A DNA stretch of 64,000 bases. Origin: Candidatus Thorarchaeota archaeon. Lineage in GTDB: Archaea > Asgardarchaeota > Thorarchaeia > Thorarchaeales > Thorarchaeaceae. Below the pieces are notes generated by a model. That model saw only the letters and a list, made by a program, of their open reading frames with translations, did no database searches and was not told the origin of the DNA. The position numbers were made by a program, and so were the translations under genes. This document shows, piece after piece, positions 40,771 to 57,385 of this stretch (position 1 is the stretch's first letter; each line of letters starts with the position of its first letter). Location: assembly GCA_030593165.1 (NCBI GenBank), contig JAUVHR010000001.1:25025-89024 (forward strand), in the 5' to 3' direction.

Positions 40771-40906
40771 AAACTGTTTCAGAAGAAATCTTTCAACACC
40801 TGAAAAAGCGTGAATCATCATCTTAGGTTAGTAATCTCGGTGCACGATTGCGTTAAAATGAAGATTATTAATCCACGGAAGTGTCCGAAATCAAAGGATA
40901 TCAACG

Positions 40907-42061
40907 ATGAGATTTCCGGGTCTTATTATTCTTACATTAATTGTAGTCATGCCTATTTCGAGCCCTATTACTGTTTCATCTATGAAAGCTGAGATGGCGA
41001 ACCCATACTTGTTGGCACAGACAGAAAACCCATCAGCCAGATTCCTACCAGGTATGGTCTATGACCCTGTAAATGAACACGTTATGTTGTTTGGAGGAGG
41101 ATATGGTGCTGCTTCGCTTGACGATACTTGGGTTCTTGATTATGAAACCAGCACTTGGACCGAGCTAGTACTATCAACCTCTCCAAACCCGCGACACTCA
41201 CATGGCATGGTCTTTGATTCGAATAATGAGGTAATCATCCTTTTCGGTGGTTACAATGGAGCATCCCCAGCTAGAGACACATGGGTCTTCAATTGCACAT
41301 CAGAAATATGGACTGAGGTGACACCTGAGATATCCCCTCCCGAAAGAATGTCTCACGCTATGGTATATGATTCAGTAAATGGAAAAGTCATTCTCTTCTC
41401 CGGATATGGTCTAGATGGTCCTGAGGTTGACGATACCTGGACCTACGATTACACAACAAATACTTGGGAGGAGATGAATCCTACAGTATCCCCCCACGCA
41501 AGATATGGGGCAGCTTGTGTCTATGATGACGTAGATGAAACTATGATCATCTTTGGAGGCAATTCTAATGGGTACTTCTCAGATACATGGAGTTACGATT
41601 ACTCAACTGACACATGGACCGAGCTATCTCCCATGACTCATCCGATACCGCTCAAATGGTCTTCTATGACATATGACTCAGTGAATCAGAAATCTATCCT
41701 CTTTGGGGGTGACATAAACTCTCCTATCGTATCCAATAAGACATGGATTTTTGATTCTGCAGTCAATGAATGGGAGGAAAGTGAAACTACAATTGCTCCA
41801 TCAAGCAGAGAGGCATGTGGATTTACTTTCGATTCTAGAAATGAAAAGGCCATTCTCTTTGGGGGAACAAAGGGAACTGGTCAACCCGGAGACCCTTTCA
41901 ATGAAACGTGGGCTTATGATTATACAACGGACTCTTGGACTAAAATAGAGCATGAAATAGGTGATATTCCTCTACCATTAGATTCACTTTTGATTCTCGG
42001 TACAATAACTTTGGGAGCCGTTGCACTCGTTATTGTATATGCTTATTTCAGGAAGAGATAG
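40907..42061 (+). CDS. secreted/membrane-anchored Kelch-repeat beta-propeller protein
   Basis: Signal-peptide-like N-terminus, about 6 repeats of ...FGG...DTW.YD...W.E..., and a C-terminal TM segment. Confidence 0.7.
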   Translation: MRFPGLIILTLIVVMPISSPITVSSMKAEMANPYLLAQTENPSARFLPGMVYDPVNEHVMLFGGGYGAASLDDTWVLDYETSTWTELVLSTSPNPRHSHGMVFDSNNEVIILFGGYNGASPARDTWVFNCTSEIWTEVTPEISPPERMSHAMVYDSVNGKVILFSGYGLDGPEVDDTWTYDYTTNTWEEMNPTVSPHARYGAACVYDDVDETMIIFGGNSNGYFSDTWSYDYSTDTWTELSPMTHPIPLKWSSMTYDSVNQKSILFGGDINSPIVSNKTWIFDSAVNEWEESETTIAPSSREACGFTFDSRNEKAILFGGTKGTGQPGDPFNETWAYDYTTDSWTKIEHEIGDIPLPLDSLLILGTITLGAVALVIVYAYFRKR

Positions 42062-42106
42062 TCTATCAGATATTCCAACACATATGTTCATCGACTTGAT
42101 AGAAAG

Positions 42107-42224
42107 AGTGGCGCCTCCGCCGGGATGTTCCAAAATCACCGAAGTGGTGATTCTTCTTGAACCCGGTTCTCAAGAGATCCGTTCCAAGGTGTCAACCACA
42201 ATGGATTGACAGTCTTGAATGCTA
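42107..42224 (-). repeat. tRNA-Asp 3' two-thirds (copy 3) carrying a canonical 37/38 intron and the T-loop intron
   Basis: Aligns with 45662-45749, apart from a 30-nt insert exactly between the anticodon-loop A37 and C38. The acceptor 3' strand is CGGAGGC. No matching 5' acceptor strand was found. Confidence 0.75.
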
Positions 42225-42330
42225 GACTCTCATCATAGACTATTTACCTCTTAGAATTCAAAACAGACGCGCTAGTGGGAGAGAATCGAACAAGCACTAT
42301 GACATATCCTGTCACAATCTATAACGAAGC

Positions 42331-43083
42331 CTACCTAGACCAATTAGAATTATCAACAGCTTCATATCCACACTTCAGACATTTAGCTCTGAACTTCCCC
42401 AACTCTGCTTTTCGTATAGCCACTTCTCCAGGGTATGGAAGATTAAGCTTTGCCCATCTGGTATTCAGACATTTTCCCCTACACCAAATTTGCACCAAGT
42501 ATTCTATTGGAGTAGATGCGGCATATGCTGGCAATGACGGTAAATCAGGCCCAGATCGTACTGAAACATGTTCCATCATTCTCTCATGGTACTCAGAATC
42601 TTCTTCTTCAGCATCATATATTACATGAACAGGGTTGAAATACTCAGTCCAACTGAAGTCCACATTATCTGTCCAAGAAACAAGGAAAATTTTCTTCACT
42701 CCTCGATGCATCAGGTCCTGTATACACTCACCTCCTGCATCGAATTTCAAGGAGTCTATTGGGTAGACTATTGCGATATCAATACTACGCGGAGATGATT
42801 GCCAAGTGGTCCGTTTTATTGTGTCTGGAAAGAGAGTGAATCCCCTTTGAACACTAATCGGTTTACCAATCTTCGGATCCCTGTCTAGCCCCAATGTTTC
42901 CCCCAATATCTTCAGGTTATTTGTCCGAAAGAGAATTGTAGCTGGAGCTGGATACTTTGAAAGAACGAGTTCAAGGACAAGAGGATGCTTCATCTTTTGG
43001 TGTGTACCTGTTAGAAGCAGAGTCTGATTGGTTCCCTTGAGGAAAGAAGATATTTTTTGGATGGCTTGCAATTTAGTATTCAT
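42331..43083 (-). CDS. hypothetical protein with C-terminal Zn-ribbon
   Basis: 250-aa ORF with CRGKC...CLKCG. Confidence 0.45.
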   Translation of the reverse strand: MNTKLQAIQKISSFLKGTNQTLLLTGTHQKMKHPLVLELVLSKYPAPATILFRTNNLKILGETLGLDRDPKIGKPISVQRGFTLFPDTIKRTTWQSSPRSIDIAIVYPIDSLKFDAGGECIQDLMHRGVKKIFLVSWTDNVDFSWTEYFNPVHVIYDAEEEDSEYHERMMEHVSVRSGPDLPSLPAYAASTPIEYLVQIWCRGKCLNTRWAKLNLPYPGEVAIRKAELGKFRAKCLKCGYEAVDNSNWSR

Positions 43084-43247
43084 ATCTGTATCATCTTTCT
43101 ATGAGTAGATACCGTAATAAAATCAGACCCTAGTTTCAAGAGTGAAGTATTAGAGTCACCTAATCCTTACTTGCTTCGAGTAGCTGTCCTCAGCTGTACA
43201 AATTCGCTGCATTAGTTTGATTAGTTTTGGCATGATATCTTTGAATT

Positions 43248-43592
43248 TTGAATATTTATTGGGAGTCATACCTTGGAAAGGATATTCATTGGAGCACGTC
43301 AACCCTAGCACTCATTTTGGAAGAACTGATGGTCAAGGAGAAAGCAGCAGAACTCGGTATCTCAATAACTGAGGAAGATAACTACTATTCGATTTTGAAG
43401 AAAGTTAAGGAAAAACTGAAGGAAAAAGGTACAAGGATGAGTCGTGATTTCAAAATAGCTGACGCACATCGTAAAATAAGAAACGATGTGTTTCACGAGG
43501 GGTGGAATGCTACTGAAGAAGAAGCCTACGATATAATAGGACATGTGAGAAATTTGGTAACCTTTTTGAATCTCAAGCCAATTAAGAGATAG
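43248..43592 (+). CDS. small HEPN-like protein (Rx4H motif)
   Basis: AHRKIRNDVFHEGW matches the R-N-x-x-x-H HEPN signature in an all-helical ~110-aa protein. Confidence 0.5.
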   Translation: MNIYWESYLGKDIHWSTSTLALILEELMVKEKAAELGISITEEDNYYSILKKVKEKLKEKGTRMSRDFKIADAHRKIRNDVFHEGWNATEEEAYDIIGHVRNLVTFLNLKPIKR

Positions 43593-43606
43593 ATTACCGG
43601 ATGAAA

Positions 43607-44182
43607 TTATAGTTGAATATCAAAAACAGGAGCATTGGGTTCTTCAATTACGCCATCATGAAATATAATCCATCTACAGTCTCGCATCTCTTTGCCCAAA
43701 ACCAGATAGAATCCATACTTGTAGTGATAGGTTGTTGTCAATTGCACAAGTTTGTTAGAATCATACCTTCTTGTTTTCGGCTTATCAGTAGTCCATTTCT
43801 TTAACTCAAAACAAATGAAGTCAGATTCAGAATTTGCTTCCCTTTTGTGTACTATAATATCGACATATCTTCGTCCTTTTCCGCCAATTTTGAGAAAGTA
43901 CTTCTGATCTTGTTCGTCCCATATTATATTGCCATTTTCATCCAACACTGGATTTCCCTCGTTATCTAGCCTTTTTTTGTAGGAGCTATCATAATGACTG
44001 TCAACAAAGAAATCCTCCCCAATTATGCTTTGAAGATGATGTGCTAAACGAAAAGTAAAGCAAAGTTCATGCATCATTTTATCCTGTTTTCTTTTGAATA
44101 GTTCAGCATCAATTTTATACAGTCTAATGAGAGTGTTTCTTACTAACTCTTTTACCTCTTCTAAAGAAGAATCACGATTCAT
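43607..44182 (-). CDS. PD-(D/E)xK nuclease-fold-like protein
   Basis: RRYVDIIVHKRE ... FICFELKKW gives the D ... E-x-K arrangement. Confidence 0.5.
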   Translation of the reverse strand: MNRDSSLEEVKELVRNTLIRLYKIDAELFKRKQDKMMHELCFTFRLAHHLQSIIGEDFFVDSHYDSSYKKRLDNEGNPVLDENGNIIWDEQDQKYFLKIGGKGRRYVDIIVHKREANSESDFICFELKKWTTDKPKTRRYDSNKLVQLTTTYHYKYGFYLVLGKEMRDCRWIIFHDGVIEEPNAPVFDIQL

Positions 44183-44406
44183 ATCTTACCCTCCATACGT
44201 AACCCTTTCATGAAACGGAATAACATAGTATTAATTTCTGTTGCTTTCCCAAAAGTGACCAATGGTACAAGATAATCACTGAAGTACAAAGTCTTGCGAA
44301 TCTATCACCATAACACCACTCGAATAAGAATATCAGAACAAGAAGGAGTTTATCTGTTCACGAATTTACAGCTTATGTAGCAGCATAACGTTGGAATTGG
44401 ACTAAT

Positions 44407-45594
44407 ATGACTTCAGATGATCTAAAACGTTTCTACATGTTGTATTTCGAAAAGGGGTTTCGAATCAAAAAATTCACCGTTGACGTATCACTTGGTAGCA
44501 AATACAAAACAGTGATAGAGCTGGTCAAGGATGAGATGAGAGAAATCATCAAGTCCGATGAAGAGGACATTGCTCATACCATCCTCAGATTCAATAACAT
44601 CACTAAATCTGATGGAACCGTTGGTCTTGCTAAAATTAGGGATTCAAGAAAATACTATGATACAATCTCAGACTTCGCTGAAAACAGAGAGGACAAAATA
44701 AAGAGAGCTCTTGAAGACCTTAAAGAAGGAAAGTCCCCGTTTCAAGGAGGGTTTTGGCATGACTTTGACAAAGCATTAGTCAAGTTACTGTTTGAGAAAA
44801 CTTCGTCCAACGATTCCGACCTACTATGGTTGAAAGAGAATTACTTTCACCTTCTTGCTTTCTATCTTAATGAAGCCAAAGAGATGATGGGTAATACCAG
44901 AGATCTGCTCTTTGCAAAACACAAGGATATTCGCTCCATATCAGATGCAGCTGATAGGATACTGTCTAAAGCTTTTCTCGTCAAGAAAGAGAAGAAAAAT
45001 CCAGTCGAGCTCTATAAAGCATATCGTCCACATCTACCTGATTCTCTTGAAAGTCACTCAGAACGAGTGTCTATTCAACTAGCCTACCTTGACGATCTCA
45101 GAACAACACTAACCAAGGCTGGCTCTCAAGAAAAGAGTATCAGGATTCTTTACGTCTTGGATGTCTATCGTCGTGTCTATGAAATGACTCTCCCAATCTT
45201 GGACCTGCTACGTATTGCCATTCTCCTTCATAATGAGGAAAAAGAAATTGAATATAGTATGTCAGCTAACGATATTGTCACCATTTTAGCTGAGAATGGG
45301 TATTCTGGATTTGTAGAAGCTTTCAATCCCCAAATCAGACATTGTGAGTCCCATCTCGCAACAAGGATTAGTGAAGGCAAGGGGAAGGTGCTTCTAACAA
45401 AAAGGGAAGGTCTTCGTCGAGTAACGATTCAAGAGTATAGCTATGAGGACATAGTTAGCTACCAAAGTCGGCTGTATGACGTGGTATTTCCCGCTCTTTA
45501 CTATACTTTCGTAAAATTGGATGGATTTCTCAAACTCTTGTTATTAGATTCGTTCGAATATCAACTCCTACTGATATCTAAAATTGCTGCATGA
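44407..45594 (+). CDS. hypothetical helical protein with a second Rx4H motif (IRHCESH)
   Basis: 395-aa ORF. FNPQIRHCESHLATRI resembles Abi/HEPN-type motifs. Weak. Confidence 0.4.
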   Translation: MTSDDLKRFYMLYFEKGFRIKKFTVDVSLGSKYKTVIELVKDEMREIIKSDEEDIAHTILRFNNITKSDGTVGLAKIRDSRKYYDTISDFAENREDKIKRALEDLKEGKSPFQGGFWHDFDKALVKLLFEKTSSNDSDLLWLKENYFHLLAFYLNEAKEMMGNTRDLLFAKHKDIRSISDAADRILSKAFLVKKEKKNPVELYKAYRPHLPDSLESHSERVSIQLAYLDDLRTTLTKAGSQEKSIRILYVLDVYRRVYEMTLPILDLLRIAILLHNEEKEIEYSMSANDIVTILAENGYSGFVEAFNPQIRHCESHLATRISEGKGKVLLTKREGLRRVTIQEYSYEDIVSYQSRLYDVVFPALYYTFVKLDGFLKLLLLDSFEYQLLLISKIAA

Positions 45595-45663
45595 TATTGA
45601 TGCGGTACCACAAAGTTGCCCTTGTGGCTGTCTACTTCAATTTTTGATACAAGAATGAGAAAG

Positions 45664-45801
45664 TGGCGCCCCCGCCGGGACATTCCAAAACCACCGTAGT
45701 GGTGATTCTTCTTGAACCCGGGTCTCAAGAGTGACAGTCTTGAATGCTATTTCGGGCATCATGGGAAATCCATGATGTTGACCGGACTACACTACAGGGG
45801 C
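45664..45801 (-). tRNA. tRNA-Asp(GUC) with two 30-nt introns (D-loop and T-loop)
   Basis: The reverse complement gives acceptor GCCCCTG/CGGGGGC and the D arm GTGT-AGTCCGGTC[intron AACATCATGGATTTCCCATGATGCCCGAAA]TA-GCAT. Anticodon arm is CAAGA-CTGTCAC-TCTTG. T arm is CCGGG-TTCAAG[intron AAGAATCACCACTACGGTGGTTTTGGAATG]T-CCCGG. CCA is encoded. Confidence 0.8.
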
Positions 45802-45824
45802 ACTGGTAGCGGGGTCGAAATGGA

Positions 45825-45837
45825 ATTTTCTATTAAA
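45825..45837 (-). promoter_or_regulatory. TATA-like element of tRNA-Asp (TTTAATAGAAAAT on the tRNA strand)
   Basis: Lies 24-36 nt upstream of the tRNA 5' end. The same 13-mer recurs at 53487-53499, upstream of the 5' fragment. Confidence 0.55.
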
Positions 45838-45974
45838 CCTGTCGGAAGTTACACTCTAGAGGAATGGGATTTTTACAAATTCCTAAATAGATGGGAGGAT
45901 AAAATGTAAGAAAATATGTAAAATTCCTCCATACTAGCCCTCTCCTTACTTAAGAACGGTACAAGATTCCCGTT

Positions 45975-48900
45975 CTATCTCTTGATGAGCTTCTCCATTC
46001 TCATCAGTCTAACACACTCTTCCACTGCGCTGTCCTCATCCTCCTCACTGAGGTTGAACTCCCCCAGAATTGACCTGACCTCACTCTCAAAGTCCTCCGT
46101 ATCTATACGTCCGAATTCCCTAAAGTCATGAAGATGTCCTGTCACTGGCACTTTGTGACTCTGATCCTCTGACTCCAAGACCACATACATGACCCTCCCT
46201 CCTGCTGAGTCCTCTCCTATCGTCGCCAGGAAAAACTCGACCCTTGCTTGGTCCTCTTCGACTCCGTACATCTCGACTGCAACTGCCATCTCCTCTCGTA
46301 TGGCTGCGGTCATCCTCCTATCCGCCCTGACCCCGATTTCCTCTAGGAACACCTTCATGGCCTGTTCTAGAAATTCCTGCACTTCCGAGGTAGTCCACAG
46401 GGCAACGTTCCGTTCAGGGATTTTTCTCTCTCTCGTTTGTTCACTGCTCTTCTCCCTTAGACCCACTGTCACATACTCTGGTGTTATAGCAAAGAACGGA
46501 CTCCACCTGTCCGGGTCTCGTAGATGCGCTCCAGGAAGGTCTGGGTCAAGCCTCCGTCCTGTCAACTCCTCTAGCATCACTCTAAGGTGCCATGACTCCC
46601 GTACCTCTTCAATGCACTCTCTTCGGACCACAATCTTGAACGTATGCGTCACCCACTCTTGCTGTGGACTGGACCAATAGACAAGCTCCTGCGAACTCAG
46701 AAGGGCTCTCACTTGAGTGTCAGTGAACCGAGCCTCCATGAGTCCTATCAGTTCGGGTGTGAGAGTCTGTGTTGAGTCCACATGAACTCTCCAGCATGAC
46801 CCGTGATGTATCCCTGGCTCGTTGCTGACCCTCTCAGGTTCGGCCCAGTCACTCTCGTACCTGAATTGGTACAGGTGTCCCAAGGTCTTAGACCTGTGGT
46901 GGGCCTTCTGTATTGCCTCCATTGAGGTGTGTCTTAGGGGACAGGTCCAAGGGTCATGATACAGCTCCAAGGTCATATCGAACCCCTTGCTCGCATCCAG
47001 AAGCTCGTTTGCAGTGGGCGGGAGCTTCAGGGGTAGACCAACAAAGGGCTTGTGTCTGTTCACCCACGGTCTGAGTAATGCGACATCTTCATCATAGGAG
47101 ATGTCCTTGAACCTGTTCCAGATCAACCGTTTTCCGTTGATGATGACAGGTTCGCACTCGTTGTCAGGTCGCCTGAGAATCTCAAGAAGGTCAACTGTCC
47201 TGTTGATCAAGAGCTCTCCAAGCAACTCGTCAGAGGCTTTCTCTTCAAAGGTGATCTTGTACATTCGCTCTTCCTCATCAAGAGTGATCTTACAAATCGC
47301 AGGAGTGCATTTCTTCAGTCCTTTATTCAGGATAAGCAGGGCTATGTCAACTAGACTCCTCACTTGATGTATGGGAGTCCGCACATCGTCAAAGCCAACG
47401 GGTTGAAGATGAGGGTCTGCGGAGAGTGATATAGTGCGGATGAGGGTCACATCCTCAAACCGTCTGGTGGTGCAATGAACCCGTCCAACTGGAGTCCATC
47501 GTCGGTGCTCTCTGTCCCTTACCCAGAGGACCTGTAGTCCCTGATAATCTGCAATCATCACTGGTACTCTGACCTCATCTCCCTGTAGCTTGGCATACTG
47601 ACTGAGGAGATTCAGATTACTCTCACTCCAATAGGTCCTTGCTGACACCATCTCGTGGAGAAGCCTCAGAGGTGAGAGAGAGGGGTTGACTCCTTTTGGA
47701 CTCAGAAGGGCGGCATTCATGTCATAGATGCCTGGTGTTCGTTGGAAGAGCAACCAGAAACAAGTAGAGCCAGCAGCTCTTGAAGAGGGCAGGGCAATCA
47801 GTTGTCCAAACCTGACATTGGTCAAGGATACTTGCAGATCGAGTGATTTGTTGTGGGCGATGACACGTTGCTGTAGTCGTTTCAGAAGCCTATGTCTATC
47901 AAGCACTGACCTTCCTGTCCTGTGGCTCCTTGGATAGGCCGGTCTGAGTCCTAGACAAACAAGATGCCATGGTTGAACATAGTCCCACAGAGAATGATGT
48001 ACCTCTGTGAACGCTGTATCAGGGATAGACCCCAAGACGGTAAGTATCAGAAGGAAGAGATGATTCCCTGTGACTACCAAGATGTCAGGATGTCTTTTCT
48101 GAATTGTGGTCACATGTTCTCGCTGAGCCAAGGTGAGGTCTCTTGGAACAGTAGAGCGAAGAGGTAGCAGTCGCTCCCACACCTCTACGCTCAGAGGATT
48201 GGTCTCAAGAATCTGTCGGACGAGTCGAAGTCTGTTCATCAGAGTGGGTGTATCCTCTAAGTAAATCTCCTCACTAGTGGAATCAAGTGCTTCAGATAAG
48301 TGATCAAGTAGTTCTATCAAGTGACTCCCATCATCGAGTCTTAGGAACTTGATAGTGTCCCTAAGATATCGTATCTCTCTAAGCGCAATCCTGTAATCGT
48401 CCATTTCGCTGACCGAGAGATAGTACTCTGAGGGAGGAAGCGTGCACCGTTTTGGGGGAGCAACATCAAGCTCCATATGCCTGTACTCTCTCCTTTGATT
48501 GATGGTAGCCATCGGAAGCAAGAGCTTCACTCTTCCATCGACATCCTTCTGAGTTTGGACGTCGACCTGACCATCGTCCTCTTTCTGAGCATACACCTGA
48601 CTGGGTCTGAATGACAACATAGGGGAAGGGTCTTGTGGCATATCATATCCTGAAGTCACATGTTCAATCTTGAGTGAGAGGTTTGAGTCTGGTCCTTTGC
48701 TGTATTCGTTTTGAGAGAGGAGATGTGGGATGAATTCCATGGCACGTTCCAGTTTCTTCTCCATATGCTCACTACTGTATTGTGGTGAGGATGAACCAGT
48801 CCCCCTGTGAAAGACTGCCTTGCTCTTGCGCCCACCGGACCGGAAGTCCTTACCCCATCCTCTCAACGGCTCAATCCCGATCATCATACGTTCGAGAGGT

Positions 48901-51380
48901 TGACCCAATCGCTCAATGAAGATTCCTCGCTCATGGTCATTAGTGGGTGCCCTTGCTCCAGTACGATCCGGTGGCATTGCTACGTTCCAAACTATTGTAT
49001 TAACAAAGTTCTGCCACAGTGTCCCTTGATAGAATGGGGCAACACATCTTGTTGCATAGACTGTGCTACTCTGCGGAAGAGGTACGGGACGTGCAAACCA
49101 CAGGGTAGTGCTCTCGCTGGGGAGGGCTTGAATGATGGTTGTTGCAATCTCATCAAGATACTTGTGGTGTGAGTCCGGTGTGCTTCGACGAAGGGTCTCC
49201 CAGCCCGAAACCACTATGATAGGGTCTCGCCCCTCTCTCAGTATATCATCTATCCTTTTCCGGAGAGTGCCGATACGCTCACCATTATAGATACATGCCT
49301 CCACTTGATTCGACAGGTCCTTCACCTGGACACGTCGTTTGAAGAATCGTCTGATTGGGTCAGGCTGATACCTCAATCTAAACTGTTTCTTTCTTAGAAT
49401 AGGGTCATTGTACTCACCAACAAGGTCAAACCAGTACACGTCACGATGTCGCGCAAGACCATGCACGAACTCTAACCCATGCCATCGCTCTGCAATCACT
49501 GCAGCAGACTGGGAAGGAGAGCCTCCTCCCGGAACGGTGAGATAGAGGATGAACTCTTTCTGGTCCACAACTCGCTCACTGAATGGTTCTAGTGGAATAG
49601 GAGTGCTCAACTGCACAGTATCAGTGGCGGGTTTGGCAACAGAAAGCATTCTCATCGCGATTCTTAGGCGAGTATCATCATCAGAGGGGAAGAGGAGGTC
49701 GCCCTCAGATAACGTCCCATCAACACATCCATTGTACACTCTCAAGACAAGAGGAAGTACTGCATTACTGATGTCCTTCCAGTCCTGATACGAGTCGACG
49801 ACCAACACAGCTTTTACAAGCTTTTTCTGAGCATCAACATCCTTCCACATCACATTCTGATAATCTGTGAGAATAGAATCTTCATAGGCATCCAGTTGCT
49901 CAGTTTCGTAAGGATCGGGGGTGTTTGTGAGGACGTTCTCCCACTCGTCATTGGTCAGTTCTCTCCGATCCAAGACGAATTCACTCACTACATCATCCCT
50001 GTGAATAGAGCCTGACTCGATTCCATAGATATCGAAATCAAAAGCGCTCTTGGTCTTCAGGTCAATGACCATGAAGGGCTCACAAATCACGAGAGATGGA
50101 CCTCCATCAACCCGGGTCAGTTGCTTTGCCCGAGCCAATACGAGATCAGCTCGTCCTCTTCCTCCATCAATTGGGACTTCAGAGAGAAGAATGAGTCCTG
50201 AATCATCATATGCCATCTCTTTCCCGTGGTACACGATACCATTGAAACTGAAGGGGCTCTGGAAGTTGTGGGATACAAACCTGTGGATACGAACACCTAT
50301 TCTCCTGCTCTGTTCCTTTGCATGCCCCAAGAGTTCTTCAGAGTCCTTAGCTGTCAGAGTGTCACTCTCTAGCAAGTCCTCGGCGGTCTTGATGAAATCA
50401 GGATCCAGAACAACTCCCTCGTTCTTTGCAGAAGTGATTGCTTCTTGTAGGAAGTGGGTCTGTGATTCTTCCTCATCAGCTCTCTTCTCTTCCGTGTCCT
50501 CGATGACCTCATCTGACGTTTCTGCTCTGTCCTCAATAGCATCATCTGGTGTCAGGTCCTCCTCTGAAGGAGCATCCTCCGACACTGATTCCCAAACCTC
50601 TGACGTGATGGACTGACGTTGACCGTTCCTAGTACCATACTCTCTCTTTATCTGCTCTATAACGATTCTGAGTTCCTTGAGTCCACCTCGAACGTAATTC
50701 GGTCTACCAGACCTTCGCTCCGTGTAGACATAGTCCATGAAGGGGAGGAGCCTGAAGAGTAGTGCTTCGATGTACTTCTTGGCTTCCTTTAGTGGAACTC
50801 CATACTTCAGGCACTGTCTAGCAAGCTCCATCAGAGGGCTCCTGATCATATCTCCAAAATCGAGCTCTGTCAGATGGTTGTGCCTGACTGAATATTTCGG
50901 AGTCTTCGTTGATCCATGATACCCAAGTGCCAAAGACCCATCACTTCTCTCAATTGGAACAGGTTTCGGGAAGATATATCTCGATTTCACGACATCTCGT
51001 ATTCTGCTCCCGGCATAGTCCCAGAGGATGTTCAGATACTTCTTATTGCCCTCCTCCCGTTTCACACGTTTGGTTTCAGTGTTGCCATACCTCACCGAGG
51101 TCTTTAACATGATTCGAGAGAAGCTCCTTCGAAGAACATGTTCGACCTTGAGGAGTACTGATGCATCAGGGTGACGTTGAATTACAGTCTGCTGGTAGTT
51201 CCTCTTAGCCTCATCCCATATCTTTGCCATTCCCTTGATCCTATTCCCCTGTCCAAAGTACAACGGTCTTGACTTGCCTGTAGCTCTATCTCTGGCCAGT
51301 GCAAGTGTGATAGCCATACTCATCTTGAAGGCAGTAGTAAGAATTCTTGCAGGGTTTCGAGGATATTTATGATTAGCCAC
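45975..51380 (-). CDS. giant orphan protein (1801 aa): basic N-terminal domain, acidic linker, PD-(D/E)xK-like motif, ~1350-aa uncharacterised C-terminal region
   Basis: A single uninterrupted ORF. No Walker A, polymerase, helicase or recombinase motif was recognised. Residues ~395-445 (SEVPIDGGRGRADLVLARAK...EPFMVIDLKTK) fit D...D/E-x-K. Confidence 0.75.
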   Translation of the reverse strand: MANHKYPRNPARILTTAFKMSMAITLALARDRATGKSRPLYFGQGNRIKGMAKIWDEAKRNYQQTVIQRHPDASVLLKVEHVLRRSFSRIMLKTSVRYGNTETKRVKREEGNKKYLNILWDYAGSRIRDVVKSRYIFPKPVPIERSDGSLALGYHGSTKTPKYSVRHNHLTELDFGDMIRSPLMELARQCLKYGVPLKEAKKYIEALLFRLLPFMDYVYTERRSGRPNYVRGGLKELRIVIEQIKREYGTRNGQRQSITSEVWESVSEDAPSEEDLTPDDAIEDRAETSDEVIEDTEEKRADEEESQTHFLQEAITSAKNEGVVLDPDFIKTAEDLLESDTLTAKDSEELLGHAKEQSRRIGVRIHRFVSHNFQSPFSFNGIVYHGKEMAYDDSGLILLSEVPIDGGRGRADLVLARAKQLTRVDGGPSLVICEPFMVIDLKTKSAFDFDIYGIESGSIHRDDVVSEFVLDRRELTNDEWENVLTNTPDPYETEQLDAYEDSILTDYQNVMWKDVDAQKKLVKAVLVVDSYQDWKDISNAVLPLVLRVYNGCVDGTLSEGDLLFPSDDDTRLRIAMRMLSVAKPATDTVQLSTPIPLEPFSERVVDQKEFILYLTVPGGGSPSQSAAVIAERWHGLEFVHGLARHRDVYWFDLVGEYNDPILRKKQFRLRYQPDPIRRFFKRRVQVKDLSNQVEACIYNGERIGTLRKRIDDILREGRDPIIVVSGWETLRRSTPDSHHKYLDEIATTIIQALPSESTTLWFARPVPLPQSSTVYATRCVAPFYQGTLWQNFVNTIVWNVAMPPDRTGARAPTNDHERGIFIERLGQPLERMMIGIEPLRGWGKDFRSGGRKSKAVFHRGTGSSSPQYSSEHMEKKLERAMEFIPHLLSQNEYSKGPDSNLSLKIEHVTSGYDMPQDPSPMLSFRPSQVYAQKEDDGQVDVQTQKDVDGRVKLLLPMATINQRREYRHMELDVAPPKRCTLPPSEYYLSVSEMDDYRIALREIRYLRDTIKFLRLDDGSHLIELLDHLSEALDSTSEEIYLEDTPTLMNRLRLVRQILETNPLSVEVWERLLPLRSTVPRDLTLAQREHVTTIQKRHPDILVVTGNHLFLLILTVLGSIPDTAFTEVHHSLWDYVQPWHLVCLGLRPAYPRSHRTGRSVLDRHRLLKRLQQRVIAHNKSLDLQVSLTNVRFGQLIALPSSRAAGSTCFWLLFQRTPGIYDMNAALLSPKGVNPSLSPLRLLHEMVSARTYWSESNLNLLSQYAKLQGDEVRVPVMIADYQGLQVLWVRDREHRRWTPVGRVHCTTRRFEDVTLIRTISLSADPHLQPVGFDDVRTPIHQVRSLVDIALLILNKGLKKCTPAICKITLDEEERMYKITFEEKASDELLGELLINRTVDLLEILRRPDNECEPVIINGKRLIWNRFKDISYDEDVALLRPWVNRHKPFVGLPLKLPPTANELLDASKGFDMTLELYHDPWTCPLRHTSMEAIQKAHHRSKTLGHLYQFRYESDWAEPERVSNEPGIHHGSCWRVHVDSTQTLTPELIGLMEARFTDTQVRALLSSQELVYWSSPQQEWVTHTFKIVVRRECIEEVRESWHLRVMLEELTGRRLDPDLPGAHLRDPDRWSPFFAITPEYVTVGLREKSSEQTRERKIPERNVALWTTSEVQEFLEQAMKVFLEEIGVRADRRMTAAIREEMAVAVEMYGVEEDQARVEFFLATIGEDSAGGRVMYVVLESEDQSHKVPVTGHLHDFREFGRIDTEDFESEVRSILGEFNLSEEDEDSAVEECVRLMRMEKLIKR

Positions 51381-51504
51381 ATGTCCTATTAAACTTAATA
51401 TATAATAAATTCTTCGGGTAATTCGACTTTAATAAAAAACTGAATAGCTACGGTATTTCGTTTCAATTGGCCAATTTGGTGTCCTCATATCGTGCAATCT
51501 TAAT

Positions 51505-51614
51505 AACTTTATAAGAGATTTTCCAATACAAATGTACGAGTTCAAAAGTTCCCTTCGGGACAAGAAAGGGAGTGAACTCAATTGACCAGAAACGGGTCAG
51601 AACTTTATAAGAGA
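51505..51614. promoter_or_regulatory. two copies of aactttataagaga (TATA-box-like) in the divergent intergenic region
   Basis: Exact 14-mers at 51505-51518 and 51601-51614. The second ends 9 nt before the ATG at 51624, which is too close to that ATG for a standard TATA-to-start spacing. Confidence 0.45.
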
Positions 51615-51623
51615 ATCAGGCGA

Positions 51624-53315
51624 ATGACAATGGCTCGGTCCAAGGGTGTGACAATCGCGGTCAAGGTCCCTGTTAAGTGGGAATCGATGACTGAGAGGAC
51701 TAAGCAGAGGCTTAGGCAGACCGTTGGAAGAGACACTAGAGTGATTCGTGCATTCTTAGGGATAATGGAACAGCATGAAGACGAGTTGCTAACAGGTAAG
51801 AGCAGAATAAGAATTAACGACGGTGAGCTGGACCGGCTGACCATGACTGCACTCAAGGTCAAATCAGGAGCCAGTCAGAGAACCAGTGTTCCACATGACT
51901 TCAAGGTTCGATTTCCTCGAATCTCTCAGAACGAGATGACCGAGTGTAGACAGACTGCTGTCGCACTCTATGAGAGTTATCTCAGACTGAGAAAAAAGAA
52001 GGGGCGAAGAGCTTCACGTCCTACTTCAATCAATTGTAGTCGACGGATACCACGATGGGTCTTTTCCCAGAGATTCAAGCTTGTTGAAAAGAAGACCTCT
52101 ACCTCTCGATGGTGGCTTGATATCCGCGATGCTCTTGACTCAGTGCAAGAGGGGAGATCTCATCATGACAGACTGGTGGTCCCTCTCAAGATATCACCCC
52201 ACCACCTGAACCAGATCAGACGCGGTGAAGTGAAAGCCGTACAGCTCTTCACTGATAGACAACGAAAGTGGTGGCTAACAATTGCAGTTCGAATCACTAT
52301 CAATGAATCTCCAGAGGAGCATCTTCCCGTTGCTATCCTTGGAATTGACCTTGGTATTGAGAAGGCAGCTTGCTCAACCCTTCTTACTCCTGAGAAGACA
52401 CGAGAGACCCAATACTTTGTCCAGAGGGAGAAGGTCAAGTCAATCAAGAAGTACGATAGACTTGTTGCAGCTCTGCAAAGGGAGATGCATACTCGACAGA
52501 ACAATGGACTTGCATATGATGGGGTCACTGATAAGCTCGGTCACATGCGGTCCAAGAGAGAGAATGTTGCAAGGGAGTATGACCGGGTTCTTGTTCGACA
52601 GCTCCTCAACTACATCTCAGAACTCTCCAAGAAGTACACCCTCTATGTAGCCATTGGTCGCCTGAAGAATATACGAATGCGTGCTAAGCGAGGTAACTAC
52701 CAGGGGCGAAGGTTCAGAGGAATGATACACTCATGGGCCTTTGCTAGAATAACTGACAGTCTAAAGCATGGACTGGCTCAGCTTGGTTGGAAGGTTGATG
52801 GAAAGGACCCAAGGTTCAGAGCTGTTCCTGAGGGGTGGACGTCCATCATGTGCTGGATGTGTGGGAGCAAGGGAACTCGTCCCAAGCAGAACTACTTCCA
52901 CTGCCCATCTTGTGGTCACAAGACCAATGCTGATAGAAATGGTAGTATCAATATTGCTGCGCGCATGCTCAAGCTCACAAAGTCATTGCACAATGTGAGA
53001 GGACTAGGCCTGTGGACTAGAGCTCTTCAAAAGGCTCGACGTGCGCGACCGAAAGCCCAAGGGAGAATCTCGAAGAGATTGTCAAAAGGGAAGTCTTTAC
53101 TCTCCAAGAAAGGACCAACATCAGGTTCTGGAGAGTCCGCGGCCGTTCACCATGCTCAGATGAGTCTTCTCAGTTTCAGTGATGAATCTGGGATGGGTGA
53201 TAATGACCCTGCCGTGGGAAGAACTGTGGAAACACTCACTGTCGCTGGAAGTGATGGACCAGCTAAAGCACAGGAGAAAGAGGCCAGGACTGTAGGAGGG
53301 ATCCCATCCCGATGA
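51624..53315 (+). CDS. tnpB: TnpB / IS200-IS605 OrfB-like (Cas12-related RuvC + Zn-finger) protein with a ~115-aa low-complexity C-terminal tail; the track ORF starts at TTG 51582
   Basis: RuvC-I is ILGIDLGIEKAA. Also present are HSWAFARI, TS-I-MCWMCG...CPSCG (Zn finger) and RuvC-III (NADRNGSINIAARM). The block where RuvC-II hhhEDL is expected reads YVAIGRLKNIR. Confidence 0.8.
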   Translation: MTMARSKGVTIAVKVPVKWESMTERTKQRLRQTVGRDTRVIRAFLGIMEQHEDELLTGKSRIRINDGELDRLTMTALKVKSGASQRTSVPHDFKVRFPRISQNEMTECRQTAVALYESYLRLRKKKGRRASRPTSINCSRRIPRWVFSQRFKLVEKKTSTSRWWLDIRDALDSVQEGRSHHDRLVVPLKISPHHLNQIRRGEVKAVQLFTDRQRKWWLTIAVRITINESPEEHLPVAILGIDLGIEKAACSTLLTPEKTRETQYFVQREKVKSIKKYDRLVAALQREMHTRQNNGLAYDGVTDKLGHMRSKRENVAREYDRVLVRQLLNYISELSKKYTLYVAIGRLKNIRMRAKRGNYQGRRFRGMIHSWAFARITDSLKHGLAQLGWKVDGKDPRFRAVPEGWTSIMCWMCGSKGTRPKQNYFHCPSCGHKTNADRNGSINIAARMLKLTKSLHNVRGLGLWTRALQKARRARPKAQGRISKRLSKGKSLLSKKGPTSGSGESAAVHHAQMSLLSFSDESGMGDNDPAVGRTVETLTVAGSDGPAKAQEKEARTVGGIPSR

Positions 53316-53439
53316 TGACAGACAATGCTCTTGCTAACTGTAAGTTCTTCTTGAATTTGCAGGGTGGTGACACTGGCAAGAGAGGGGCGGAACACAGAAG
53401 TTTCAAGTTGGCGTTCACTCAACTAATATGAAATTGGTC

Positions 53440-53467
53440 ATGCTAGACCGGACTACACTACAGGGGC
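53440..53467 (-). repeat. intron-less duplicate of the first 28 nt of tRNA-Asp
   Basis: The reverse complement GCCCCTGTAGTGTAGTCCGGTCTAGCAT equals exon 1 plus the start of exon 2 of the 45664-45801 gene, with the D-loop intron absent. Confidence 0.85.
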
Positions 53468-53748
53468 TAAACAGGCCCAATCTTCGATTTTCTATTAAAG
53501 TTGTCGTTATATTTGCTGGCAAAAACGTAACCCTTTTACCGGTTTATGCGTCATAATCCATGGCTTTGAGTCTTGTAAGCCGCTAGATGATATGCTATTT
53601 TATCGCTTTATCGCAATCCTTTTATGGTTTCGAAAAACCCCGTCCGCTGCTCAGTTCGAACTGCTTCCCACTCATGTATGACCATAGATTGTATTATGCG
53701 TGAGCATACAATACCCTACATGGTCTGATGCTTGGTGTGCTGACGAAG

Positions 53749-53853
53749 GGGCTCGTGGCGCAGACAGGTAGCGCAGCAGGCTTTTACACTTGTTCCCATG
53801 GAATAAGTAAAGAAACCTGATGGCCGCGGGTTCAAATCCCGCCGAGCCCGCCA
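53749..53853 (+). tRNA. tRNA-Lys(UUU) with a ~28-nt canonical intron
   Basis: Acceptor is GGGCTCG/CGAGCCC. D arm is GCGC-AGACAGGTA-GCGC. The anticodon arm is GCAGG-CTTTTA[intron]A-CCTGA. T arm is GCGGG-TTCAAAT-CCCGC. Confidence 0.75.
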
Positions 53854-54016
53854 TAGAGTTTCCTTTGTTAGTGCTGGGGACAGATCACAGAGCAAACAAA
53901 CGGGGCAACTACTGCGGTATCTGAATGAGCTCGGATTTTCTGAGGTCATGCGTTGGGAAGCGCAGAGTTTCGCGGTGGTACACCCCGTCCTCATCAAGTG
54001 TCAGGTGTCATGTTTA

Positions 54017-57000
54017 ATGTCAGACGCAAAAGAACGGGGCAAATATTGGCCAGTCATTGAAGCTTTCTTTAGTCACTACGGTCTAGTAGGACAACATCTA
54101 GACTCATTCAACAGATTTGTGAGAGAAGAGCTTCAACAAGTCGTTGATAGTGTTGCTGAGCTAAAGCCAAAGGTGGAAGGCTACACAGTTGCACTTGGCA
54201 GGCTCACAATTAATCCACCTTCAGTCCGAGAGGCTGACGGAAGTGAACATTCTCTGTATCCTAACGAGGCAAGGATTAGGAACCTGACTTATGCAAGCAA
54301 GATATTCCTTGAGTGTACTCCCATCCGTAAAGAGGGTTCAGTCACTACACGCCTAGAAACTCTACGTATCTACATTGGAGATCTCCCAATTATGCTGCGT
54401 AGCGAGAGGTGTCTTCTACATGGCATGTCAGATGAGGAATTAATTCAATGTGGCGAAGACCCCAAGGACCCTGGTGGGTACTTCATCATCAATGGATCAG
54501 AACGTGTCTTGGTGACACAAGAGGATCTGGCGCCAAATAGAATTCTAATTGAGGAAGCAAGTAAAAGCTCAAGCTTCACACACGTTGCCAAGGTCTTTTC
54601 GACCTCTCGTGGTTTCAGAGCTCCTGTCACAATTGAACGGAAGCGAACTGGTGAGCTGCGCGTATCATTCCCATCCGTTCCTGGAAAGATACCCCTTGCG
54701 ATTCTGATGAAGGCACTTGGTCTAGAGTCAGACAGAGCGATTGTTGACGTAATCTCCGACGACGAAGAAATTCGCAATGAACTAATCGTGACCATAGAAC
54801 AGTCTGCTCCAATCAATGCACTTGGTGATGAAGGGGATGGTTCCACACGAACCAATGCACTAGACTTCATTGGAAAACGTGTCGCAGTTGGTCAGACCAA
54901 GGAGTACAGGTTAGCACGTGCAGAGAAAGTACTCGACAGATACCTGTTCCCTCACATCGGTACTGAGGACAAACACAGACTTCAGAAAGCATACTATCTT
55001 GGTCAAATGGTTGAGCGTCTTCTTGAGCTTGTGCTGAACAAGCGTCAGTCTGATGACAAAGACCACTATGCCAACAAACGACTGAAGCTATCAGGTGACC
55101 TACTCATGTCCCTGTTCAGAGTTGCACTCTACTCTTTGACCCGTGACATTAAGTACCAGCTTGAGCGTACTGCAGTCCGTGGCCGTAAGCCCAACATCAG
55201 AACTGCAGTCCGAGCAGATGTTATCACTCAGAGACTGAAGCATGCTCTTGCTACAGGAAACTGGGTTGGCGGAAAAGCAGGTGTATCACAGCTACTCGAT
55301 CGAACCAATCTCATCTCATCACTCTCGCACCTGCGCAGAGTGGTATCCCCTCTGTCAAGATCACAACCACACTTCGAGGCACGAGACCTTCATTCAACTC
55401 ACTGGGGTAAGATATGTCCAAACGAAACCCCTGAAGGCCCAAATTGTGGACTGGTCAAGAATATAGCAATGATGGCATACATCTCTGTGGGTACTGACGA
55501 AGAGGCAGTAGAGAGAGCCATACTTAAGGCAAAAGTGGAACCAATCGAGATTCTAGAGGGCAAAAGAGGCTCAAAGTGGGCAGATGTATTCCTCAACGGC
55601 AGGTTGGTGGGAGTTCATCCGGCCCCAATGGTCCTTGTTAAGACAATTCGTCAACAGCGTCGTGCAGGTGAGCTTGACAATGAAGTCAACATTGCTTACT
55701 ATGAAGGCACACATGAAGTACAGGTTAACTGTGATGCAGGTCGCGTTAGACGACCAGTGATTGTTATTGAGAATGGAAAGAGTCGTCTAACAGACGAGCA
55801 TCTTAGGATGATAGCTGATGGCGAGTGGGGTTTCATTGATCTTCTTCGGAATGGAATTATCGAATTCATTGACGCCGAGGAGGAAGAGAACACCCTGATT
55901 GCAATGTATCCTTCTGAAATAGGAGAGCTGACAACTCATATGGAGATTGAACCGTCAACCATTCTTGGAATCTCAGCTGCTCTCATTCCGTTTCCTGAGA
56001 GGAACCAATCTCCCCGTAATGTGTACATGGCGGGCATGGCAAAACAGTCGGTTGGTGTACCCGCATCCAACTTCAGATTACGTGCAGACACAAGAGCTCA
56101 TGTTTTCCACTACCCACAAGTTCCACTCGTGAAGACTCGTGCCATGGATTCGATTGGATACGAAGAACGCCCTGCAGGACAGAACTTTGTTGTTGGAATC
56201 CTTTCTTTCGAAGGCTATAACATTGAAGATGCTCTCATCATGAACAAGGCATCCATTGAGAGAGGTTTGGGCAGGAGTACATTCGCCCGAGTCTACGAGA
56301 GCGAGGAACGAAAGTATCCTGGTGGCCAGGAGGACCGGTTTGAAATTCCTGACCGCAGCGTGCGAGGCTACCGAGCTTCAGAGTCCTACAGGAACCTTGG
56401 AGAAGATGGGATTATTGAAACCGAAGTAGAGGTTCAGGGAGGCGACGTACTGATTGGTCGTACCTCACCACCACGATTTCTGGAAGAGTACTCTGAATTC
56501 GAGATTGCCTCACCTAATCGTAGAGAAACCTCAGTGGCTGTTCGTCATGGAGAGGCTGGGGTTGTAGACAATGTCATTCTAACCGAAACCATCGATGGAA
56601 ACCGGCTGGTCAAGGTGAAGGTCAGAGATTTGCGTATTCCCGAGCTTGGTGACAAGTACGCTTCACGCCACGGTCAGAAAGGAGTTATCGGATACATCGT
56701 ACCTCAGGCCGATGTACCGTTCACTGAGGATGGTGTTGTACCTGATCTCATCATTAATCCACATGCTATCCCAAGTCGAATGACAATTGGTCAAATCCTT
56801 GAGATGGTTGCTGGAAAGGCTGCAGCCATGGGTGGCAAACAACAGGATGCCACAGCGTTTTGTGGCGTCACTGAAGATGAACTGTTCAAGATACTCAGTG
56901 ATAACGGCCTACAGTACAATGGCCGTGAAACAATGTATTCAGGTATCACAGGCGAGAAGCTCACAGTTGACATATTCATTGGAGTAATTTACTACCAGAA

Positions 57001-57385
57001 ACTGCACCATATGGTTGCAGACAAGATTCACGCACGAGCACGCGGACCAGTCCAGATTCTCACTCGGCAACCAACCGAGGGTCGTGCACGAGAAGGTGGT
57101 CTACGGTTTGGAGAGATGGAGCGTGATGTACTCATTGGCCACGGCGCAGCGATTCTTCTGAAGGGCCGCCTACTTGACGAGTCAGACAAGAGCAACATGC
57201 TAATCTGTGAGGAGTGCGGTCTGATTGGAGTTTATGATAGAAACAAGGACCAATACTACTGTCCCATCTGCGGTACTGGTGCAAAAATCAGTAGTGTGAT
57301 AGTATCTTACGCATTCAAGCTGCTAATACAGGAAATGATGTCACTCGGTCTTGCGTGCAGGCTACGACTGAAGGAGATGATCTGA
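54017..57385 (+). CDS. rpoB: DNA-directed RNA polymerase subunit B (unsplit); start set to the ATG at 54017
   Basis: GLVGQHLDSFN, the GYFIINGSERV-type motif (GGYFIINGSERVLV), GDKYASRHGQKG, and a C-terminal Zn-ribbon (CEECG..CPICG). Confidence 0.95.
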   Translation: MSDAKERGKYWPVIEAFFSHYGLVGQHLDSFNRFVREELQQVVDSVAELKPKVEGYTVALGRLTINPPSVREADGSEHSLYPNEARIRNLTYASKIFLECTPIRKEGSVTTRLETLRIYIGDLPIMLRSERCLLHGMSDEELIQCGEDPKDPGGYFIINGSERVLVTQEDLAPNRILIEEASKSSSFTHVAKVFSTSRGFRAPVTIERKRTGELRVSFPSVPGKIPLAILMKALGLESDRAIVDVISDDEEIRNELIVTIEQSAPINALGDEGDGSTRTNALDFIGKRVAVGQTKEYRLARAEKVLDRYLFPHIGTEDKHRLQKAYYLGQMVERLLELVLNKRQSDDKDHYANKRLKLSGDLLMSLFRVALYSLTRDIKYQLERTAVRGRKPNIRTAVRADVITQRLKHALATGNWVGGKAGVSQLLDRTNLISSLSHLRRVVSPLSRSQPHFEARDLHSTHWGKICPNETPEGPNCGLVKNIAMMAYISVGTDEEAVERAILKAKVEPIEILEGKRGSKWADVFLNGRLVGVHPAPMVLVKTIRQQRRAGELDNEVNIAYYEGTHEVQVNCDAGRVRRPVIVIENGKSRLTDEHLRMIADGEWGFIDLLRNGIIEFIDAEEEENTLIAMYPSEIGELTTHMEIEPSTILGISAALIPFPERNQSPRNVYMAGMAKQSVGVPASNFRLRADTRAHVFHYPQVPLVKTRAMDSIGYEERPAGQNFVVGILSFEGYNIEDALIMNKASIERGLGRSTFARVYESEERKYPGGQEDRFEIPDRSVRGYRASESYRNLGEDGIIETEVEVQGGDVLIGRTSPPRFLEEYSEFEIASPNRRETSVAVRHGEAGVVDNVILTETIDGNRLVKVKVRDLRIPELGDKYASRHGQKGVIGYIVPQADVPFTEDGVVPDLIINPHAIPSRMTIGQILEMVAGKAAAMGGKQQDATAFCGVTEDELFKILSDNGLQYNGRETMYSGITGEKLTVDIFIGVIYYQKLHHMVADKIHARARGPVQILTRQPTEGRAREGGLRFGEMERDVLIGHGAAILLKGRLLDESDKSNMLICEECGLIGVYDRNKDQYYCPICGTGAKISSVIVSYAFKLLIQEMMSLGLACRLRLKEMI

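Follow-up and report, generated by a model that had tools for sequence, protein, structure and literature searches.

A Thorarchaeota TnpB without the canonical RuvC-II glutamate that is probably catalytically competent and overlaps a predicted omega-RNA scaffold

Can a TnpB protein that lacks the RuvC-II glutamate still cut DNA, and why does it carry a long C-terminal tail over DNA where a guide RNA would be expected? These questions are raised by an open reading frame (ORF) at 51582-53315 (+) of a 64,000-nt stretch of a Candidatus Thorarchaeota genome (GenBank assembly GCA_030593165.1, contig JAUVHR010000001.1, positions 25,025 to 89,024 of the forward strand), which we refer to at its full length as the window. 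A first-pass annotation of this DNA had offered two readings of the protein, a nuclease-dead DNA-binding derivative or a nuclease using a relocated glutamate. We consider it likely that the ORF encodes a competent TnpB with a rearranged RuvC-II site, that its tail overlaps the DNA of its scaffold RNA, and that both belong to a 7.6-kb element in a tRNA-Asp gene in which TnpB would have a homing role.

The ORF is confirmed in the window and encodes a TnpB-family RNA-guided endonuclease of the Asgard (Thorarchaeota) lineage. All of the motifs by which it had first been recognised (GIDLG, HSWAF, CxxC...CxxC and NADRNGSINIA) are present, the HSWAF block at residues 383-387 being conserved among homologues, and the protein matches the Pfam family PF07282 (Cas12f1-like TNB domain) with 43.7 bits against a cut-off of 26.3. 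Its AlphaFold2 model has a confident core (mean pLDDT 79.7), and the closest PDB folds are those of Cas12f (E=1e-16), followed by TnpB and Fanzor2 structures. More than 500 homologous proteins were found at E<=0.001; the named ones belong to Candidatus Thorarchaeota, and the best 120 are 73-100% identical. While the reading frame stands as first annotated, with a 577-aa track translation from TTG 51582, this TTG is probably not the start: homologues begin at ATG 51630 (M17, MARSKG...), 16 codons further on, which is the likely start of a 561-aa product. Residue numbers below are those of the 577-aa track; D256, E417 and D451 are D240, E401 and D435 in the 561-aa numbering. The gene and the residues that matter here are the following.

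51630-53315 (+): tnpB ORF, 561 aa from the likely ATG start
52347-52349 (+): RuvC-I Asp, D256, in GIDLG
52656-52658 (+): Gly359, at the canonical RuvC-II position
52830-52832 (+): E417, candidate for the relocated Glu
52851-52913 (+): C4 zinc finger, C424/C427/C441/C444
52932-52934 (+): RuvC-III Asp, D451, in NADRNGSINIA

In a family-profile search of PDB sequences, 'lyvaiGklkgir' stands opposite 'tiqmEDLtnir' of AsCas12f. This aligns Gly359 with the catalytic Glu of AsCas12f, in agreement with the placement made by eye in the first-pass annotation, and the canonical RuvC-II Glu (hhhE-D-L) is not present. Among the 33 family members that we aligned, down to 22% identity, this position is Gly in 32 and Ser in one. 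The remainder of the site is kept, with D256, the four zinc-finger cysteines and D451 unchanged in 16 close and 33 distant homologues. Further downstream, E417 lies in a strand, VPE-x-W-T-S, directly before the zinc finger and 2 residues ahead of the Thr-Ser, and a Glu within E-x-x-T-S occurs there in all 33 homologues, including members of ordinary size (409-443 aa). D256, E417 and D451 are the invariant acidic residues of the alignment; the position of E417 is taken in AsCas12f by the Pro of 'DPQYTS' (profile alignment). Gly359 and E417 are 58 residues apart, and E417 and D451 are 34 apart.

There is published precedent for such an arrangement. An E-to-G/P change at RuvC-II accompanied by an alternative Glu downstream has been described (PMC10530073), Jiang et al. 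(2023, Sci Adv) placing the alternative Glu ~45 residues away (PMC10530073), and in published TnpB and Fanzor proteins the shift is ~45-50 residues (PMC10530073, PMC11832414). The E467A substitution abolishes cleavage by ApmFNuc, and the rearranged Thermoplasma TvTnpB cuts DNA (PMC10530073); the structure of the active Fanzor2 protein ApmFanzor2 has the triad D324/E467/D501 (PMC11832414), whose Glu467-Asp501 spacing of 34 residues equals that between E417 and D451. Altae-Tran et al. (2023) reported large TnpB branches with Gly in place of the RuvC-II Glu, a loss for which an alternative Glu compensates; several of these RIIr clades are archaea-specific (PMC10691335). As far as aligned residues can tell, the RuvC site is this published rearranged RuvC-II (TnpB2/RIIr) configuration, with Gly in place of the canonical Glu on strand beta-4 and E417 as the presumed third member of the triad beside D256 and D451. 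By analogy with its characterised counterparts, the TnpB is probably catalytically competent rather than nuclease-dead. Since neither Asp varies and a Glu at an alternative position is equally constant, the nuclease-dead reading becomes unlikely, and the relocated glutamate, offered as its alternative, is supported, with E417 as the candidate residue. Among the outcomes that would refute its observation, the first-pass annotation had listed an alignment with a conserved Glu at a known alternative position, and E417 is such a residue.

We now turn to the tail, for which two overlapping features are needed.

52965-53315 (+): tail-coding part of tnpB, residues 462-577; peptide predicted to be disordered, codon positions equally constrained
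52975-53440 (+): structured RNA of ~450 nt, overlapping the tail codons and the 3' untranslated region (UTR), read as an omega-RNA scaffold

Related loci were collected in a scan of one genome per species, which gave 70 loci, with up to 10 loci per metagenome-assembled genome (MAG). The protein, which the first-pass annotation had put at ~170 aa over a typical TnpB, is indeed long, with 561 aa from the ATG. The tail, described earlier as low in complexity, is predicted by AlphaFold2 to be disordered (pLDDT <50 for model residues 473-544), and despite this prediction residues 462-577 are well conserved among homologues. Codon-level diversity accounts for this. In the TnpB core the ratio of nonsynonymous to synonymous change (dN/dS) is ~0.10, with saturated synonymous sites; the core is under strong purifying selection, and the gene is not a pseudogene. 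Synonymous divergence (pS) is 0.28 in the tail as compared with 0.71-0.72 in the core, and diversity at the three codon positions is 0.21/0.20/0.24 in the tail as compared with 0.21/0.15/0.49 in the RuvC core, the collapse at third positions beginning at about nt 52960-52975. The tail dN/dS of 0.63 thus reflects suppressed dS and not higher dN. The ORF and its C-terminal GGIPSR motif are retained in 43 related loci, and the length past the RuvC-III Asp varies among relatives from 42 to 182 aa, as expected for an incidental extension. We attribute the conservation of the tail to nucleotide-level constraint from an RNA, the tail being mainly a by-product of gene overlap in which ~115 codons are read into RNA-encoding DNA. 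A PIP-box-like Q526-x-x-L529-x-x-F532 also lies in the tail, where the RNA constraint explains its conservation.

The RNA itself was modelled with RNAalifold from window positions 52953-53443 together with 38 loci, which yielded 118 base pairs; compensatory double changes are seen at 55 of these. Paired cells reach 97.2%, as compared with 41-46% when partners are slid by 1-3 columns; double-change cells number 375, as compared with 29-73 in the slid controls, and none of 500 shuffles attained the observed pairing values. The frequent G-U pairs are compatible with the + strand only. About two-thirds of the RNA, at its 5' side, lies inside the ORF and ~125 nt lie beyond the stop codon. A covariance model of the last 137 nt found one copy past the tnpB stop in 55 sources (54 related loci and the window), among them distant loci whose TnpB is only 42-46% identical. 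The right end reads ...GGAACACAGAAGTTTC...GTTCACTCA...AGGTCA, with GTTCACTCA at 53413-53421 conserved in at least 40 loci and GGTCA at 53436-53440, and it is at the AGGTCA end that similarity among non-syntenic loci ceases. In Rfam no family matched this RNA, tRNA-Lys being the sole match. We interpret the tail DNA and the 3' UTR as together encoding a predicted omega-RNA scaffold. That the tail lies over scaffold DNA had been suggested before and is borne out by the synonymous-site constraint and the RNA covariation; the scaffold has not, however, been displaced, and tail and scaffold coexist on the same DNA.

The variable parts near the right end are a hairpin, P2, and the stretch that follows GTTCACTCA, while upstream of GTTCACTCA lies conserved scaffold. 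An internal guide in the variable sequence that separates GTTCACTCA from AGGTYA was considered and rejected: this sequence is partly conserved, its TGTAAG pairs with an upstream CTTACA, and it behaves as the 3' strand of a hairpin. Scaffold modules also occur by themselves, the 3' module being found without an adjacent tnpB at L008:170-312 (-), L017:15766-15895 (+) and L061:8109-8239 (+); L063 and L014 each have a second tnpB copy. At L004:9815-9900 and L011:1878-1972 the last ~65 nt of the scaffold recur as a degenerate second copy, which follows a spacer of ~23-30 nt beginning TACACTACAGGGGCTCGG, in a repeat-spacer-repeat layout. The syntenic second copy in the window (53441-53530) has nearly decayed, and the spacer-like TACACTACAGGGGCTCGG had no match in IMG/VR.

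What does the DNA on either side of tnpB and its RNA belong to? A search of the window with the sequence just downstream of the scaffold revealed a second copy of it some 7.6 kb away, within a tRNA gene and beyond a very large ORF.

45664-45801 (-): tRNA-Asp(GTC) with two non-canonical introns, the integration target; cloverleaf from in-silico splicing
45780-45801 (unstranded): 22-nt direct repeat GACCGGACTACACTACAGGGGC, left copy, equal to nt 1-22 of the minus-strand tRNA-Asp
53446-53467 (unstranded): 22-nt direct repeat GACCGGACTACACTACAGGGGC, right copy, starting 5 nt after the scaffold end
45975-51380 (-): giant ORF of 1801 aa (probably 1751 aa from the Met at 51230), divergent from tnpB

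The 22-nt repeat is perfect, a 15-nt search pattern having 2 matches where 0.06 were expected by chance, and slightly beyond it a further TATA-like block is common to both sides. The tRNA-Asp gene is interrupted after the D-arm by an intron of ~31 nt and within the T-loop by one of ~29 nt; spliced in silico it gives a perfect cloverleaf (ARAGORN), and unspliced it is missed by both ARAGORN and Rfam. Bracketed by this tRNA-derived repeat, the giant gene, tnpB and the RNA behave as one 7.6-kb element (45802-53445) with the tRNA-Asp gene as its integration site.

Four further loci have repeats that bracket the two-gene unit and exceed the cross-locus control: L017 (49 nt, tRNA-Arg), L050 (17 nt), L038 (16 nt, tRNA T-arm) and L055 (13 nt). 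In L038, L050 and the window the right copy starts 1-5 nt past the AGGTYA end, at the place expected for a TnpB guide; in L017 and L055 it starts ~80 nt past that end. Read together, these flanks suggest that tRNA genes are a general target of the element family, although the presence of a tRNA gene beside every right end, as judged by ARAGORN, is not general. tRNA genes or tRNA-like fragments (D-arm or T-arm sequences) lie directly beside the element ends in the right flanks of L014, L017, L061, L067, L033 and L038 and in the left flanks of L024 and L030. In L050 (~2110-2170 vs 9750-9780) the right repeat copy joins ACGTCCCTGC straight to TTCTTGCACACACCGCC, whereas in the left copy a palindromic sequence of ~30 nt separates the two, the element-side copy resembling an intron-less or 'spliced' version of the target.

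The giant ORF is the only recurrent neighbour of tnpB when ORFs are clustered over the 70 loci (35 of 70); it encodes 1400-1900 aa, is always divergent and lies ~230-320 bp upstream of tnpB. Its product has no match, to a transposase family or otherwise, in Pfam or NCBIfam, and none among PDB sequences or with Foldseek. An invariant E...D...K...Q...Y pattern at residues ~400-500 looks, by eye, like a PD-(D/E)xK/RecB-type nuclease motif followed by QxxxY, and the N-terminal region is strongly conserved (RYGNTE..., LPELDF.DMIR). The motifs RYGNTE, GPLN.L.NY.G and H..LPELDF.DMIR are ones that we take to be Cas1-like; Cas1 homology was not confirmed. Neither Pfam (17 members) nor NCBIfam supported it, PDB profile searches with the full length and with the N-terminal domain gave no Cas1 match, Foldseek of a 700-aa AlphaFold2 model (pLDDT 79) returned nothing at E<0.1, and hhalign against an approximate E. 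coli Cas1 sequence gave a probability of 1.3%.

The giant proteins are fast-evolving and fall into deep subfamilies with ~22% identity between and 55-91% within them, while the linked TnpBs are 58-89% identical. In four syntenic loci of other genomes (L004, L011, L020 and L066) the element occupies the site that it has in the window, beside the tRNA-Lys/rpoB flank; the window has left-flank genes, too, in common with L020 and L066. The TnpB DNA of the syntenic loci is 76-78% identical to that of the window, more than the tRNA-Lys/rpoB flank stretch (68-71%), and their giant gene is only 23% identical; the giant gene of the window is most similar (58-65%) to those of loci with other flanks. This pattern suggests movement or replacement.

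The left end of the tnpB unit has a structure of its own.

51505-51518 (+): 14-nt direct repeat AACTTTATAAGAGA, upstream copy, resembling an archaeal promoter with B recognition element (BRE) and TATA box
51534-51600 (+): conserved left segment of ~67 nt (GTACGAG...GGGAGTGAACTCAATTGACC...GGGTCAG), flanked by the two TATA-like repeats
51601-51614 (+): 14-nt direct repeat AACTTTATAAGAGA, downstream copy, its TATA ~26 nt before ATG 51630
53404-53423 (+): right inverted-repeat arm CAAGTTGGCGTTCACTCAAC, complementary to a left arm at 51568-51584

DNA similarity among copies extends from ~51498-51535 to ~53421-53441, that is, ~106-126 nt past the stop at 53315. In 34 of 41 loci the two TATA-like repeat copies (12-15 nt, 96 nt apart) are identical within the locus and different between loci, with a median longest common string of 13 as compared with 6 in cross-locus controls. 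The first copy is placed ~26 nt ahead of the conserved start GTACGAG and the second ~26 nt ahead of the tnpB ATG. This is the archaeal TATA-to-start distance, and we therefore infer two promoters: the downstream one is likely to serve a leaderless tnpB mRNA, and the upstream one may produce, from a predicted start, a separate small left RNA or a 5' leader. The left segment holds GGGAGTGAACTCAATTG, the reverse complement of the right-end CAGTTG.GGTTCACTC; the left/right duplex has an energy of about -23 kcal/mol as compared with -9.6 for shuffled partners and is slightly better within than across loci (p=0.03). A minimal tnpB unit with a terminal inverted repeat could explain this complementarity, and so could RNA-RNA pairing. 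We also compared the promoter repeat or its spacer, as a possible guide target, with the right-end variable region, the P2 hairpin and the flank; with no same-locus excess of matches in either orientation, this idea was rejected. A match resembling the left end on the far side of the giant gene in L025 proved to be a false positive of the pattern search.

Several features of the surroundings were noted.

53749-53853 (+): tRNA gene with a 26-nt intron at position 37/38, most likely tRNA-Lys(UUU)
53948-57385 (+): archaeal RNA polymerase subunit B gene, recognised by eye from its translation
40900-45600 (no strand assigned): low-GC stretch, 0.39-0.42 as compared with 0.46-0.51 on either side

The tRNA gene is missed by default ARAGORN and found by Rfam with 55.6 bits; when introns are allowed ARAGORN labels it Gln, while its anticodon loop is CUUUUGA and the intron-less L020 orthologue is tRNA-Lys(UUU), which makes this the most probable identity. 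For the RNA polymerase subunit B gene, an in-frame ATG at 54017 (MSDAKERGKYW) is a likelier start than the listed one. The low-GC stretch, in which there are four ORFs of 191-395 aa and two smaller ORFs, lies between the genes syntenic with L066/L020 and the tRNA-Asp; L066 has a shorter version of it or none, and it may represent a further inserted island.

How might the 7.6-kb element work? TnpB would bind the structured RNA, and by analogy with other TnpB systems the guide would be the 16-22 nt directly 3' of the scaffold end, which in the window would be the 22-nt copy of the tRNA-Asp 5' end. The complex would then recognise and cut the uninterrupted ('empty') tRNA site beside a transposon-adjacent motif (TAM), and this cutting would favour retention or homing of the element; retention and homing through TnpB cutting are established for IS200/IS605 TnpB. 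The occupied site would be protected, because its right copy is preceded by the scaffold end and its left copy differs at the first guide positions. Integration would be carried out by the giant protein, the obvious candidate, or by another factor.

Several observations weigh against this picture of a competent, homing TnpB. The nearness of E417 to D256 and D451 is deduced from alignment, spacing and published analogues, and the match to the NCBIfam guided_TnpB model (NF040570), at 87 bits and E=1e-24, does not reach the cut-off of 100. ORF clustering found no TnpA-type (Y1 or serine) transposase in the 70 loci, clear flanking repeats were present in only 5 of the 17 loci tested, and no common TAM-like motif was seen next to the left repeat copies. 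Finally, no two copies from the same MAG exceed 87% DNA identity, which does not indicate recent mobility and may mean that the family has become immobilised.

The alternative that survives best takes up this last point: an active TnpB-RNA and the giant protein would form a domesticated, immobile two-gene host system, for example in defence or genome maintenance, with the repeats as relics of an ancient integration. Besides the missing near-identical copies, it would fit the strong purifying selection on tnpB, the insertion site shared by distant genomes, and the divergence of giant subfamilies to 22% identity while TnpB stays far closer, a pattern frequent in conflict genes. We nevertheless hold it to be unlikely, as the window giant gene is nearest to those at loci with other flanks rather than to its counterparts at the syntenic site, the perfection of the 22-nt repeat points to an event that is not very old or to a site that is being maintained, and neither Pfam nor NCBIfam revealed a known defence domain (PADLOC was not searched).

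A more speculative reading, which we think quite improbable, would see a tRNA-targeting integrative element of a so far uncharacterised kind. Its guide would be an attachment-site copy that chooses or polices the site, and the giant PD-(D/E)xK-like protein would be its partner, a nuclease or integrase of a new type. The ~67-nt left RNA, made from a promoter of its own and complementary to the GTTCACTCA end of the scaffold, would act like a tracrRNA or anti-repeat or as a regulator, and the 14-15-nt promoter duplication would be a footprint of integration or copying.

A nuclease-dead RNA-guided DNA binder, that is, a TldR-like repressor or targeting module perhaps acting with the giant neighbour, would agree with the Gly at the canonical RuvC-II position, with copies that are old, non-identical and at conserved genomic sites, and with a stable association with a second gene, which published exapted TnpBs also show (PMC10691335). 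Published dead derivatives, however, lose several catalytic residues or the C-terminal RuvC part, whereas here D256 and D451 are invariant, as is a Glu at the published alternative position, and TvTnpB and Fanzor, which have this G/E arrangement, are biochemically active; we regard a dead protein as very improbable. A decaying pseudogene or chance ORF with the tail as untranslated read-through, which the first-pass annotation had mentioned as a possible refutation, might be suspected from the predicted disorder and the tail dN/dS of 0.63, but is hardly credible given the core dN/dS of ~0.1, more than 500 intact homologues, the ORF and GGIPSR kept in 43 related loci, and a ratio raised through suppressed dS and not dN.

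The preferred reading, a competent rearranged TnpB with an overlapping scaffold in a tRNA-integrated element, can be set beside several known systems. Its active-site arrangement is already known from rearranged TnpB and Fanzor proteins. As in TnpB2/RIIr (TvTnpB) and Fanzor2 (ApmFz2, PDB 9B0L), Gly stands at the canonical Glu position, an alternative Glu follows downstream, ahead of the Thr-Ser and the C4 zinc finger, with the 34-residue spacing to the RuvC-III Asp seen in ApmFz2, and a guide-RNA scaffold overlaps the 3' end of the gene. It differs from them in the shift of the Glu (58 residues vs ~45-50), in its ~150 aa of additional length, with ~115 codons running through a larger (~450 nt) scaffold, in having no Y1 or serine TnpA nearby, and in its Asgard host. 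The best PDB sequence and fold matches are moreover to Cas12f rather than to Fanzor, and no specific relationship with Fanzor is therefore implied.

The closest solved relatives are in fact Cas12f structures (AsCas12f, 8J12/8DZJ), by profile (E=1e-34) as well as by fold (E=1e-16), and the domain order is the same; the repeat-spacer-repeat layout in the two syntenic loci L004 and L011 is a further resemblance. Unlike our protein, Cas12f has the canonical RuvC-II Glu, and here the guide scaffold is contiguous with the gene; around tnpB in the window there is no CRISPR array and no recognisable cas1, cas2 or cas4. With TldR and other nuclease-dead TnpBs the locus shares a RuvC motif substitution, a stable genomic position and a linked partner gene, but it keeps all three acidic residues of a workable triad and an intact C-terminal RuvC part.

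Two further comparisons concern the element as a whole. Asgard 'aCas1-TnpB' elements (Cas1H-Asgard-1/2), whose aCas1 is described as extremely diverged, were reported briefly by Altae-Tran et al. 2023 (PMC10691335). They resemble our element in their Asgard host, a second large gene beside tnpB, flanking repeats, and GTTCACTCA downstream of tnpB. They differ in that Cas1 homology of the giant neighbour is not confirmed here, and in that the published 'hypervariable region upstream of GTTCACTCA' corresponds here to conserved scaffold. Aloposons, the giant-gene transposons at tRNA sites of Heimdallarchaeia (PMC8813620), likewise combine an Asgard host, integration in tRNA genes and a giant gene of unknown function; compared by their description, they carry tandem genes of 3000-6000 aa where our element has one of 1400-1900 aa, no ParA/MinD module was seen here, and TnpB is not mentioned for them (PMC8813620).

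As far as we could find, four features have not been described before: the overlap of 115 codons with a ~450-nt scaffold, the promoter duplication that is specific to each locus, the left/right complementarity, and a tRNA-derived repeat at the expected position of the guide. The locus also illustrates a trap for annotation, as this TnpB appears dead by motif inspection and is very likely active via its relocated Glu, which is relevant to screens for dead RNA-guided binders or compact editors. It provides a case of gene overlap in which a 'conserved' protein tail is largely the shadow of RNA constraint, and adds detail to a barely described type of Asgard element that combines TnpB with a giant protein in tRNA genes. 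It thereby bears on the diversification of TnpB in the archaeal lineage closest to eukaryotes, whose Fanzors share the rearrangement.

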